DNA from: Gammaproteobacteria bacterium
Lineage (GTDB): Bacteria; Pseudomonadota; Gammaproteobacteria; UBA4575
DNA: 64,000 bases
Reading direction: 5' to 3'
Assembly (NCBI GenBank): GCA_965220895.1
Contig: OZ244850.1
Span: 596,861 to 660,860 of the forward strand
The notes beneath the pieces are model-generated. The model made no database searches, was not told the origin of the DNA, and worked only from the letters and a program-made list of their open reading frames with translations. Shown here piece by piece: positions 38,485 to 41,007 of this stretch (positions within the stretch are counted from its first letter, which is position 1; every line of letters starts with the position of its first letter). The position numbers were made by a program, and so were the translations under genes.

Positions 38485-39402
38485 ATGCAGCAGTTCTCAC
38501 TCGAAAACCACAGCGCGTACCGTCGGTGGCGGACACGCAAACTCAGGAACTACCCGGCCCGTACCGAACAGCTGATCGTAGACATTCAGAATCCCTACCG
38601 GCTGACCCAAGAAGAAAAAAACGGGCTGTTGCAGTTGTGCGAGAAGGCCAATCTTGCCATCTACAGGGCCCCGCACGGCGATGTACAGGACAAGAATGTC
38701 GTGACCGCCATTGCCGGGCAGTTGGGCCTGGTCCGCATGGACGCCAACTTCTGTGCAGACCGGGACCGGATCTCTTCCATACAGGTCCTGCGTAAAGGAT
38801 CGGCAAGCTCGTACATTCCCTATACGAGCAAGCCCCTGAACTGGCACACCGACGGCTACTACAACCGGGAGGCGCAACGCATCCGGGCTTTCTTGATGCA
38901 CTGTGTACGCCCGGCCGGGAGCGGCGGTGAAAACACCTACCTGGACCCCGAAATCCTCTACATCCTGCTGCGCGATCATGACCCGGGGCACATTGAGGCC
39001 CTGATGGATCCTGAGGCCATGACCATACCTCCCAATCCTGAAAACCGCGAACGACCGGATCTTGAGACGACCGGGCCGGTATTTGTGATCGACAGGGCCA
39101 CGCAGACGTTATACATGCGCTATACCGCCCGGACCCGCAACATCCAGTGGAAAGACAGCCCGGCATGTGTGCGGGCCAGGACTACCTTGCTGGATCTTCT
39201 CAATGACAATGCCTATCGATTCCACTACCGCCTGCAAAGTGGGGAGGGTGTGATTTGCAACAATGTGCTGCATAATCGAACCATGTTTACCGATAAACCC
39301 CGCTCAGGACGCCTGCTGTACCGGGCCCGCTTTTATGAACGTGTGTCCAGCCCGGACCCTGCGAACGGCATGGCCCATACCGACGATGCTGTGGCTGAGT
39401 GA
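38485..39402 (+). CDS. TauD/TfdA-family Fe(II)/2-oxoglutarate dioxygenase
   Basis: HxD facial-triad motif (NWHTDGYY) and C-terminal His/Arg region typical of TauD-like dioxygenases. 305 aa. Confidence 0.75.
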   Translation: MQQFSLENHSAYRRWRTRKLRNYPARTEQLIVDIQNPYRLTQEEKNGLLQLCEKANLAIYRAPHGDVQDKNVVTAIAGQLGLVRMDANFCADRDRISSIQVLRKGSASSYIPYTSKPLNWHTDGYYNREAQRIRAFLMHCVRPAGSGGENTYLDPEILYILLRDHDPGHIEALMDPEAMTIPPNPENRERPDLETTGPVFVIDRATQTLYMRYTARTRNIQWKDSPACVRARTTLLDLLNDNAYRFHYRLQSGEGVICNNVLHNRTMFTDKPRSGRLLYRARFYERVSSPDPANGMAHTDDAVAE

Positions 39403-39409
39403 GGTCCTC

Positions 39410-39586
39410 ATGCAGCACCATGAGCTGCGCTCGTTTGAAGAACTCAAGGAAAAGATCGGTGAGCAGGCCCGGACAGAAGAGCTGTTCTTTCGCATGGACG
39501 TGCGTCCCCCGTTTCACGACACCCCCGAAAACTGGGAGGACATCCTGGAATCGGTATTCACCGCAGCCAAGAAAACCCCCGGCTAG
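39410..39586 (+). CDS. hypothetical small protein (58 aa)
   Basis: ATG 8 nt after the TauD-like stop. Ends 8 nt before the next gene. No recognisable motif. Confidence 0.35.
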   Translation: MQHHELRSFEELKEKIGEQARTEELFFRMDVRPPFHDTPENWEDILESVFTAAKKTPG

Positions 39587-39593
39587 TCCTGCA

Positions 39594-40283
39594 ATGTACT
39601 GGCAGGACCGAGAAGACAAGAGTGAGCAGTACGTCGTACCGGACGATGTTGTCGATTTGTCATTCAAGGTACAGTGCAAGCAGTTGCCGCTGGACCATGC
39701 CTACGACCTTTCCCGGGCCATTCAGGCAGAACTGGGCTGGATCGCAGAAGAACCCCGGGCCGGAATTCACCTGATCCATGGCGCCGAGTCAGGGAACGGC
39801 TGGATCCGGCCGCAGGAACCGGATGCCCTGCTGAGCCTGTCCCGCCGTACGCGTTTCATGCTGAGATTGCCGAAACACCGTATCGACGAGGCCAAGCAGC
39901 TTGCGGGAAGAAGTATCCAGGTCGGCGCGCATGAAATGATCCTGAGCCAGCCCCACGAGAAACTGCTTTCCACACAAACCACGATCTTTGCCCGCTACAT
40001 CGTCACCGATCATCTCACCGACGAGGGGGCCTTCCTGGAACAGGCGGACAACCTGCTAAAGGAGCAGGGCATACGCGCCAGGAAAATGATGAGCGGGCGG
40101 GCCCATGTGCTGAGGATGCCGGGGGACAATCTTGCCACGCGCAGCCTGATGATCGGCAGTCTTGAAAAAGAGGAGTCCATACAGCTGCAGCAACAAGGCC
40201 TGGGCACAGGCCGAGAGCTGGGCTGTGGCCTGTTCCTACCTCATAAGGGTATTGACGCCGTCCGCCAATCGCAGGAAAAATAA
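39594..40283 (+). CDS. orphan Cas6e(CasE)-like RAMP-fold protein
   Basis: N-terminal DLSFKV..LPLDHAYDLSRAI (Cas6 ferredoxin-fold start). C-terminal glycine-rich loop QQGLGTGRELGCGLF closely resembles E. coli Cas6e QQGIGPAKSMGCGLL. 230 aa. No Cascade genes nearby. Confidence 0.6.
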   Translation: MYWQDREDKSEQYVVPDDVVDLSFKVQCKQLPLDHAYDLSRAIQAELGWIAEEPRAGIHLIHGAESGNGWIRPQEPDALLSLSRRTRFMLRLPKHRIDEAKQLAGRSIQVGAHEMILSQPHEKLLSTQTTIFARYIVTDHLTDEGAFLEQADNLLKEQGIRARKMMSGRAHVLRMPGDNLATRSLMIGSLEKEESIQLQQQGLGTGRELGCGLFLPHKGIDAVRQSQEK

Positions 40284-40347
40284 AACCACTATTGAGTTAA
40301 CTGCTTACAAGAAGGCAAGCAAGAAATTGTCAGTGAGGAGTGAAGTT

Positions 40348-40689
40348 ATGGCAATTAACATTGATGGTAAGGAAATCGAAACGACGGATTCCGGTTTTCT
40401 GGTGGACATTGGAGACTGGAGCGAAGCGGTCGCCGAAGCCATTGCCCAGCAGGAAGACCTTGAGCTGACCGAAAGACACTGGGACGTCATCAAGTATCTC
40501 AGGGATGAGTTCATCAACAACAGCGGGAACCTGCCCAATACCCGGAACATGGTCAAGACCATGGCCAAGACCTGGGGGGACAAGAAAGTAAACGCCAAGA
40601 CCCTGTACGACCTGTTTCCCGGAAACCCCAGCAAGCAGGCAGGGCGTATCGGCGGACTGCCCGAAAGCCGGCGCAAGGGCGGTTATTGA
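40348..40689 (+). CDS. DsrC/TusE-family protein lacking both C-terminal cysteines
   Basis: TLYDLFPGNPSKQAGRIGGLPESRRKGGY aligns with the DsrC tail [27 protein letters not shown], with both Cys substituted. Good RBS GAGGAG before the ATG at 40348. Confidence 0.8.
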   Translation: MAINIDGKEIETTDSGFLVDIGDWSEAVAEAIAQQEDLELTERHWDVIKYLRDEFINNSGNLPNTRNMVKTMAKTWGDKKVNAKTLYDLFPGNPSKQAGRIGGLPESRRKGGY

Positions 40690-40803
40690 TTCAGCTCCGC
40701 GGGTGCAGAATGCGCCATGCCTGCACCCCTTAGTGAATACAGACAGCGGGCCATAGGGCTACTAGCGTATGGCAGGCTGGCTTAAACAGAGTGAGGATTT
40801 GAC

Positions 40804-41007
40804 GTGAGTTCCAAACAGGAAAAGATCCAGAAGCTGCTTGAGATGCAAAGGAAGTTCATCGAATTCGAGCAAACCGGGAAGTTGACGGCAGAAAGCTACT
40901 GGCTGCCGGGGAAAGGCTCAGAGCTGGAAGGCTTCAAAGATGAGTATACGAAGGTTGCCATGAAAGTGGTTGACGATGCTCATGACGAAGTTGGCTCCAA
41001 ACCCTAG
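40804..41007 (+). CDS. hypothetical small protein (67 aa, GTG start)
   Basis: ORF only; no recognisable motif. Confidence 0.3.
   Translation: MSSKQEKIQKLLEMQRKFIEFEQTGKLTAESYWLPGKGSELEGFKDEYTKVAMKVVDDAHDEVGSKP

Follow-up and report, generated by a model that had tools for sequence, protein, structure and literature searches.

A Cas6-family protein without a CRISPR link in a conserved module beside the dsr genes of sulfur-oxidising gammaproteobacteria

The window studied here is a 64-kb stretch of a gammaproteobacterial genome (contig OZ244850.1; all coordinates refer to the whole window), in which a short operon on the plus strand stands beside a cluster of dsr genes, of the reverse dissimilatory sulfite reductase (rDsr) type, on the minus strand. 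The operon encodes a 229-amino-acid (aa) protein of the Cas6/Cmx6 family of repeat-associated mysterious proteins (RAMP; 39594-40283, +), and it is this Cas6-like protein that concerns us. [quoted passage not shown] We found that the Cas6-like gene recurs with the same partners next to dsrAB in many species and away from CRISPR loci, and we consider it very probable that it belongs to a domesticated, dsr-linked module with no part in CRISPR.

A large and strongly conserved Cas6 clade of this kind would be an unambiguous example of a Cas protein taken into a role other than defence. For sulfur microbiology, the rDsr cluster of widespread sulfur oxidisers, marine and sponge-associated, gains 5-10 genes that are conserved and as yet uncharacterised; these include a cysteine-less DsrC with an invariant tail and three Fe/2-oxoglutarate (2OG) oxygenases. 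In our literature search, which left out most subscription journals, neither a dsr-linked Cas6 nor a Cas6 clade independent of CRISPR turned up.

A Cas6-fold protein outside CRISPR-Cas systems

In Pfam the Cas6-like protein matches PF09559 with 206.2 bits (cutoff 26.7; E 5.9e-61) over positions 1-190 of the 191 in the model, and in NCBIfam it matches TIGR02807, the 'type I-MYXAN Cas6/Cmx6' equivalog, with 139.8 bits (cutoff 98.85; E 1e-40). The Cas6 models of PADLOC match it at 1e-40 to 1e-60, and no Cas6e/Cse3 model is listed for it in the Pfam and NCBIfam scans at E <= 0.1. When a profile of 25 homologs was run against the sequences of the PDB, the sole relative was the Cas6 of a type I-B Cascade from a CRISPR-associated transposon (CAST; 8fcj_B, E 4.8e-19). 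The AlphaFold2 (AF2) model, with a predicted local distance difference test (pLDDT) of 75.8, contains beta-alpha-beta-beta-alpha-beta elements, and a Foldseek search of the PDB with this predicted model again placed CAST Cas6 on top (8fcu_B/8fcj_B, E 1e-16, template modelling (TM) score 0.72-0.77, identity 24-25%). Every one of the next 40 or so matches is likewise a Cas6, a Cse3 or the Cas6 subunit of a Cascade structure. Cas6e/Cse3 entries (PDB 2Y8W, 1WJ9, 4DZD) have the same superfamily fold (Foldseek E ~1e-6 to 1e-4, TM 0.4-0.5), but at 11-15% identity and with a structural match much weaker than that to Cmx6-type Cas6. Profiles and predicted fold thus point to a genuine Cas6-fold protein of the Cmx6 subfamily, not to Cas6e. 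A preliminary description of this DNA, drawn from the sequence alone, had rightly seen a Cas6-fold RAMP protein here; its length of 230 aa was one too many, and its label 'Cas6e-like' gives way to the Cmx6 placement.

The likeness to CAST Cas6 (8FCJ/8FCU chain B) extends from the common hidden Markov model (HMM) family and the double ferredoxin-like fold down to single residues. The two proteins share D-x-x-F-K at strand 1, GIH at strand 2, R91, R134 and a C-terminal glycine-rich (G-rich) loop, LQxxGxGxxRxxGCGxFxP, which in the window protein reads GLGTGRELGCGLF (residues 202-214) and aligns with the CAST loop. Counted over 142 full-length representatives from the best 150 matches, G202, G204, G210 and G212 are kept in 92-95%, R85, R91 and E144 in 99%, N68-G69-W70 in 90-99%, H35 in 90% and H59 in 86%, and R134 and K218 are near-invariant. 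G202, G204, G212, R91 and R134 are common to the clade (92-99%) and to CAST Cas6, which has Met in place of G210. Where CAST Cas6 has Asn, the clade has His35; in the model this residue would stand at the start of helix alpha-1, which is the position of the catalytic His of Cas6e if the two helices are equivalent, and the G-rich loop of Cas6e is likewise similar. An insertion of about nine residues, HGAESGNGWIRP (SGNGWxRP), is invariant in the clade and absent from CAST Cas6.

The gene keeps no company with CRISPR loci of its own. A script that detects the type II-C array of the window found no CRISPR-like array within about 6-8 kb of the Cas6-like gene in any of 90 homologous loci (1.2 Mb), and no cas genes occur in the gene neighbourhoods of the homologs listed. 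Thus, in contrast to CAST Cas6, the clade has neither array nor Cascade genes nearby (0/90 loci), and its fixed partners are instead a small protein, sm66, and a cysteine-less DsrC. The larger open reading frames (ORFs) of the window likewise include no type I or type III cas genes. As the preliminary description had stated, the only cas locus is of type II-C; among the ORFs of the window it accounts for cas9 and cas1, the only cas genes, and type II-C systems are not known to use Cas6.

That locus (46267-52472) consists of an array (46267-47692; period 66 nt, 21 or more repeat units), cas1 (48087-48992) and cas9 (49005-52472; 1155 aa), and its array lies about 6 kb from the Cas6-like gene. 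It sits between dsrL (43831-45756) and a gene pair, of which one member (53228-53851) encodes a 2OG-FeII_Oxy_3 oxygenase and the other (53848-54897) a DUF6866/Sfum_1244-family protein. The relatives closest to the window, L001 and L002 (L-numbers denote homologous loci, P-numbers public protein records), have this pair directly after dsrL, so the type II-C locus is a separate insertion. Both it and a TnpB element of the window are absent from L001 and L002, and for this reason we rejected a link between the Cas6-like gene and the type II-C locus. The Cas6-like module therefore lies outside any CRISPR-Cas system, and the earlier view that it does not serve CRISPR immunity is upheld by the array-free loci and by the inserted state of the type II-C locus.

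Conservation and partners of the module

All five plus-strand ORFs that had been described are present: a TauD/TfdA-family Fe(II)/2OG dioxygenase of 305 aa as gene 1 (38485-39402), sm66 (66 aa; 39386-39586), the Cas6-like gene, a paralogue of the DsrC/TusE family that we call DsrC' (113 aa; 40348-40689), and sm67 (67 aa, GTG start; 40804-41007). The second ORF had been called at 58 aa. It exists, but its ATG start is at 39386, 8 codons further upstream, because the N-terminus MLWLSE(I/V)L is kept in about 80 orthologs and stop codons stand just upstream in some of them. The tight packing noted before is real as well, except for a 17-nt overlap between sm66 and the end of tauD, stop codon included, and for a gap of 7 nt, not 8, between sm66 and the Cas6-like gene. 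On the minus strand, dsrA (36900-38165) and dsrB (35759-36832) were identified through their homologs: tblastn aligned them at 78-100% identity in 63-71 of 80 homologous loci, and the genes predicted at these places in related loci bear NIR_SIR and NIR_SIR_ferr domains.

When one genome per species was scanned, 249 genomes proved to encode a relative of the Cas6-like protein, and 80 loci were fetched from them. Their hosts are gammaproteobacterial sulfur oxidisers, nearly all of them metagenome-assembled genomes (MAGs) and several from sponges, with labels that include Thiogranum, Thiohalobacter, Thiomargarita, Thiotrichales and Chromatiales. Searched by tblastn with the window proteins, these loci have a common architecture: dsrB and dsrA on the minus strand, then TauD, sm66, the Cas6-like gene, DsrC' and sm67 on the plus strand, then a PKHD-type dioxygenase on the minus strand. 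Across them Cas6 identity falls from 93% to 47%, and yet sm66 and DsrC' are each present in 79 of the 80, TauD in 75, dsrA in 71, sm67 in 69 and PKHD in 64. The same order and orientation across 80 species-level genomes show that the string is no product of chance; its recurrence goes far beyond that.

Whether the string is conserved away from CRISPR loci had been put as a question, and it is, tied to dsrAB both in the 80 loci and in more distant members; its homologs are not confined to type I-E loci. It had also been thought possibly recruited to the dsr neighbourhood, and here the data show something stronger, a fixed part of an extended dsr cluster that shares its control region with dsrA.

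All five genes of the operon are under purifying selection. The ratio of nonsynonymous to synonymous substitution rates (dN/dS) against relatives is about 0.02-0.2 for the five together (0.02-0.15 for sm66, 0.09-0.16 for the Cas6-like gene, 0.03-0.17 for sm67), and a value of 0.86 for TauD against L008 was attributed to misalignment. The clade is also large, with 150 or more clusters at 50% identity. In a HMMER search of 1.84 billion cluster representatives, 1347 clusters passed a limit of E <= 1e-3 and 229 one of E <= 1e-30, and the length of the Cas6-like protein is conserved across hundreds of clusters.

More distant members (about 40% identity) reveal which parts of the string can be shed. 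At L081 dsrAB are followed by TauD, a small protein, a 242-aa protein and Cas6; at L089 (Kaarinaea lacus) and L090, by TauD, a small protein, a 235-aa protein, Cas6 and DsrC'. At L085, where a 2OG oxygenase converges on the string, a small protein comes after dsrAB, then a protein of 237 aa, Cas6 and DsrC'. L087 has a DUF6967 protein, Cas6 and DsrC', L077 (Thiomargarita) has Cas6 and DsrC' only, and L083 and L088 (Thioploca) have a small protein and Cas6 only, amid housekeeping genes. A reciprocal look-up that started from a DsrC' homolog led to the same cluster as in the window. From this comparison of gene contexts in close and distant members, sm66 and the Cas6-like protein emerge as the core of the module, with DsrC' as the third member most often present. 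TauD, the 235-aa protein, sm67 and PKHD belong as accessories to the form linked with dsr.

The ~235-aa protein of other lineages, inserted between sm66 and the Cas6-like gene, carries the motifs DGAAVAA and RLRNVVDVLVQDDWWF (L046 891-1598; L081 5222-5950; L085 5285-5998; L089 5279-5986; L090 5284-5988). It is absent from the window, in whose lineage it has been lost. As a hidden RAMP or Cas subunit it found no match in Pfam, NCBIfam, PADLOC or the PDB.

The core partner, sm66, is an acidic protein (pI, isoelectric point, 4.9) with the motif FFRMDVRPPFxDTPExWEDxLE and no family match in Pfam, NCBIfam or PADLOC, toxin-antitoxin families included. An acidic protein of 60-80 aa nearly always lies 5' of the Cas6-like gene, and sm66 homologs do so even outside dsr contexts (L083). 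In one sub-clade the upstream gene encodes instead a DUF6967 protein of 77-79 aa (L082 13-246, L087 929-1168); the slot for a small partner is retained there and its occupant swapped. We rejected membership of sm66 in DUF6967, since the sm66 profile gave no match to the DUF6967 proteins of L082 and L087 (E 0.019). The other small protein, sm67, is acidic too, without a family match in the same three databases, and it occupies the same position in 69 of the 80 loci.

DsrC' is clearly of the DsrC family, and it has lost both redox cysteines. It matches PF04358 with 119.2 bits (1.3e-34) and TIGR03342 with 105.8 bits (cutoff 53.5), its closest PDB entry is Allochromatium vinosum DsrC (1YX3, 4.6e-24), and it retains the DsrC fold signature with the LFPxxPxKQ...GLP scaffold of the C-terminal arm. 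It contains no cysteine at all. In the alignment to 1YX3 both CysA and CysB positions are Gly, which bears out the earlier remark that the two C-terminal cysteines are missing. The tail KQAGRIGGLPESRRKGGY ends in ...GLPESRRKGGY, against ...GLPKPTGCV in A. vinosum DsrC, so that the arm (ESRRKGGY against KPTGCV) has gained two residues and is basic. Cysteine occurs in the last 15 residues of none of 78 syntenic orthologs and of 1 of 120 database homologs, 119 of which end in SRRKGGY, and the arm is more conserved than the body of the protein. With both arm cysteines replaced, DsrC' cannot carry a persulfide or trisulfide. The genuine DsrC, whose tail has its cysteines, is encoded separately in the window (34225-34557, -).

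DsrC' groups with the cysteine-less members of the DsrC family, the 'RspA-like' ones (for the family name see PMC8477390), and with the TusE equivalog NF008562 it scores 97.2 bits, below the cutoff of 191. In public records DsrC' is named 'tRNA 2-thiouridine synthesizing protein E', the JGI name, or 'sulfur relay protein' (P0460, P0468), and the Cas6-like protein is named 'type I-MYXAN CRISPR-associated protein Cas6/Cmx6' (P0014, P0289, P0304). Such names are misleading because the functions that they imply are contradicted by context or sequence. They are likely over-annotations, the TusE name no less than the Cas6 name, and both the clade and its 'TusE' partner are routinely mislabelled in databases. 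A regulatory meaning has reportedly been attached to RspA proteins.

The first gene of the operon belongs, as had been proposed, to the TauD/TfdA family (PF02668, 69.3 bits, cutoff 27; 6.3e-19). Its HxD...H iron triad and 2OG-binding Arg, within WHTDG and NNxLHxR, are kept in at least 90% of 72 orthologs. In NCBIfam its matches to the TmpA, TMLH and BBOX equivalogs are weak and far below the cutoffs, and it has no match among PDB sequences. The gene is missing from the distant modules L083, L085, L087 and L088.

The control region and what the module may do

Between dsrA and tauD lies a shared control region (38289-38395), recognised by conserved blocks in an alignment of 28 intergenic regions; the conserved core of the spacer is about 100 bp. 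Its blocks are AGTCTAGAAG (38289-38298), whose reverse complement TAGACT is a candidate -10 element for dsrA; CCTCCATGGGGGG (38320-38332); the palindrome TTATCCCGATAGAGATAGG (38349-38367), with the consensus ATCYC-N4-GRGAT at 38351-38364 and the extended form TTATCYC-N4-GRGATA; and a -10-like block that may serve tauD (about 38380-38392). The palindrome is unique in the window. It was found in 67 of 70 dsrA/tauD spacers, in every case some 20 nt away from the CCATGGGG box.

A motif of the same kind, CCC-N4-GGGA(A)TAYRG on the plus strand, followed by a -10-like TAnAnT, is found in the DsrC'-sm67 spacer of 60 loci. The window has it as the half-site CCCCTTAGTGAATACAG (40726-40742, +), the sole exact match (0.06 expected by chance), 71 nt upstream of sm67 and followed, about 20 nt on, by a -10-like TAGCGT (40763-40768); sm67 probably has its own promoter. 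Over the loci as a whole, both motif copies stand about 25-30 nt upstream of -10-like boxes. Directly 3' of the DsrC' stop codon, a stem-loop read from the sequence, GGGTGCAG-N12-CTGCACCC (40701-40728, +), probably marks the end of the operon transcript; comparable GC-rich hairpins are present in several close relatives only, and no T-run comes after the stem-loop of the window.

Could the palindrome be the RNA target of the Cas6-like protein? Across 67 loci its variable pair is C.A in 31, C.G in 13, T.A in 4 and T.G in 19, and the C.A and T.G combinations break the stem on either strand, so we rejected it as an RNA hairpin. Neither strand would keep the stem whole, and the way in which the palindrome is placed relative to the -10-like boxes would suit a regulator that binds DNA as a dimer; the palindrome therefore reads as an operator-like DNA site. 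It resembles the 7-2-7 sites of NarL-type regulators. Candidate binders would be the NarL-type response regulator encoded in the window (25129-25806) or DsrC' itself, as the DsrC family has a helix-turn-helix-like motif. The pattern of sites lends support to joint regulation of the operon, sm67 and dsrA, and an operator-like site shared with dsrA makes the regulation of rDsr, so far poorly understood, directly testable. Other readings of these elements were set aside: the spacing of the CCCCATGG box does not fit sigma-54, no -35 element fits sigma-32, and a third motif copy with one mismatch, inside the dsrJ coding sequence (31653-31669, -), was treated as chance.

To bring these results together we propose that the Cas6-like protein still binds, and perhaps cuts, a structured RNA, and that it would regulate sulfur-oxidation transcripts post-transcriptionally or take part in their processing. 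In such a scheme sm66 would be its tightly coupled modulator, DsrC' would serve as adaptor, connecting it with the Dsr machinery or signalling in what state that machinery is, the Fe/2OG dioxygenases could add an O2-dependent input, and a DNA-binding regulator at the palindrome would co-regulate the operon with dsrA. We favour a function on structured RNA because the G-rich loop, R91 and R134 are shared with the RNA-bound CAST Cas6 and because a His appears to stand at the start of helix alpha-1. In A. vinosum, dsr expression is reportedly controlled in part after transcription, by DsrR and DsrS, and DsrC is said to bind the dsr promoter region. There too, small accessory proteins of the dsr cluster would tune dsr expression after transcription, and a DsrC-family protein with a helix-turn-helix-like motif is reportedly implicated at the promoter, although the analogy is one of function only: neither the Cas6-like protein nor sm66 is related in sequence to DsrR or DsrS. 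After dsrN the window encodes a kinase and a response regulator, and neither dsrR nor dsrS was noticed there, but no search was aimed at these small genes. An RNA-binding or RNA-processing regulator of dsr expression is for us the likeliest mechanism, tentatively held and at somewhat less than an even chance. More doubtful is the full picture that we envision, in which the first Cas6 RAMP recruited from CRISPR for housekeeping serves as an RNA regulator in the rDsr cluster and, with sm66 and a cysteine-less DsrC adaptor, couples the Dsr relay, and possibly O2, to the fate of dsr mRNA.

Several observations weigh against an RNA function. The Rfam scan of the window at 34-48.5 kb gave no match at E <= 1, and the conserved cis elements include no RNA hairpin target, the sole conserved palindrome being DNA-like. 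The clade is near-neutral (median pI 6.5, 19% above 8; 6.3 for the window protein), against 9.2 for CAST Cas6 and presumably 9-10 for classical Cas6. N68-G69-W70, R85, E144 and K218 are near-invariants specific to the clade and could form a site that does not bind RNA. The partners, a DsrC paralogue and dioxygenases, are players of the protein and small-molecule world. Much of this fits a role at protein level, in which the Cas6 fold has been repurposed without RNA binding and a complex of the Cas6-like protein, sm66 and DsrC' assembles, protects or gates DsrAB or the DsrEFH-DsrC relay. The cysteine-less arm of DsrC' might then act as a plug or placeholder in the substrate channel of DsrAB, and the dioxygenases might modify a protein or cofactor. 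Such a role draws further support from the invariant insertion and the new invariant His, Glu, Arg and Lys of the clade, from an arm of DsrC' that is better conserved than its body, and from a position inside the dsr cluster together with dsrL, a siroheme synthase and three Fe/2OG oxygenases. It is harder to reconcile with the strong constraint on the G-rich loop and on the basic residues shared with RNA-bound Cas6, or with sm66 and Cas6 pairs that also occur without adjacent dsr genes, and we know of no Cas6-fold protein with a non-RNA function. A protein-level role, possible though on balance unlikely, is almost as likely as the RNA-level one.

The remaining explanations seem to us much less probable. 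The preliminary description had suggested an RNA-binding or RNA-modification module. Spelled out for RNA or tRNA modification, the Cas6-like protein would present a stem-loop, the TauD-like enzyme would hydroxylate a base or ribose, and DsrC', as a TusE-like adaptor, would dock the complex to the thiolation machinery. TusE-family proteins are partners of the tRNA thiolation enzyme MnmA, and a Cas6 fold does share an operon with a predicted active Fe/2OG enzyme. Yet TauD is dispensable in several modules (L083, L085, L087, L088), DsrC' cannot carry sulfur without cysteines, and we therefore weight this explanation low. The tight link is, moreover, to dsrAB, a respiratory enzyme, and not to tRNA genes or tRNA-modification enzymes, and to our knowledge PF02668 enzymes are not RNA hydroxylases. 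We regard it as improbable. Still less probable is a toxin-antitoxin-like pair, selfish or stress-related, with the Cas6-like protein as endoribonuclease toxin and sm66 as antitoxin, beside dsr by chance. A small acidic gene close to or overlapping its neighbour and followed by an RNase-fold protein has that look, and the pair does stand alone in L083 and L088. The synteny with dsrAB, however, is stable over 47-93% identity and hundreds of species and the regulatory motif is shared with dsrA, in contrast to toxin-antitoxin modules with their patchy and mobile distribution; sm66 matches no PADLOC or toxin-antitoxin-type family, and the mobile-element genes close by, TnpB copies that start at about 41.9 kb, were inserted, as the closest relatives lack them. 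A regulated RNase with its inhibitor would in any case be a version of the RNA-level regulator that we favour and not a selfish element. We give hardly any credence to a decayed type I remnant (I-E, I-B or MYXAN) or to a Cas6 acting in trans on the nearby array. The automated name and the array some 6 kb away invite that thought; a dN/dS of about 0.1 and a length conserved over hundreds of clusters speak against decay, none of the 90 loci has an array, and the array at hand belongs to a Cas9 (II-C) locus that the closest relatives lack.

The extended neighbourhood

Downstream of dsrAB, on the minus strand, Pfam identifies dsrE, dsrF, dsrH, dsrC, dsrM, K, J, O, P and N. After dsrN the cluster closes with a GAF-HisKA_3 histidine kinase and a NarL/LuxR-type response regulator (25129-27187, -), and at L039 (10009-12016) such a kinase/regulator pair, its response regulator 76% identical, follows directly after sm67. 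The dsr cluster that contains the module also holds dsrL and a siroheme synthase, CysG, the latter likewise a few kb off in the window.

Convergent with the operon lies the PKHD/YbiX-type Fe(II)/2OG dioxygenase (41142-41810, -; PF13640 + PKHD_C; NF003974 1.7e-66), which is also found at the distant loci L085, L086 and L091. It is followed in 59 of the 80 loci by orf111 (42066-42401, +), a protein of 111 aa with no significant family match. Three Fe(II)/2OG oxygenases (TauD-type, PKHD/YbiX-type and 2OG-FeII_Oxy_3) and the DUF6866/Sfum_1244 protein are kept together around dsr in 47-64 of the 80 loci, which suggests an O2-dependent layer in this rDsr lineage.

The TnpB element of the window (42439-43704; IS605-family, 421 aa), an insertion relative to L001 and L002, has an internally deleted mini-copy 0.4 kb upstream of the full gene (41902-42069), in which a 55-aa ORF joins the N- and C-termini of TnpB. 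The two copies share an 87-nt 3' end (41981-42067 and 43616-43702; 90% identity) and bracket the conserved orf111.

Further from the module, an MbnB/TglH/ChrH-family (DUF692) enzyme (14765-16438; PF05114 5e-105) lies beside a DUF2063/NGO1945-type protein, a pair typical of loci for the modification of chalkophore-like or other ribosomally synthesised and post-translationally modified peptides (RiPPs), and a TonB-dependent receptor is encoded nearby (17020-18807). The conserved dsr neighbourhood may be larger than the region analysed. Sel1-repeat and glycosyltransferase-family-3 genes are found at 55899-57724 and 61158-62591 of the window, and at L081 (6755-8775) they come directly after the Cas6-like gene.

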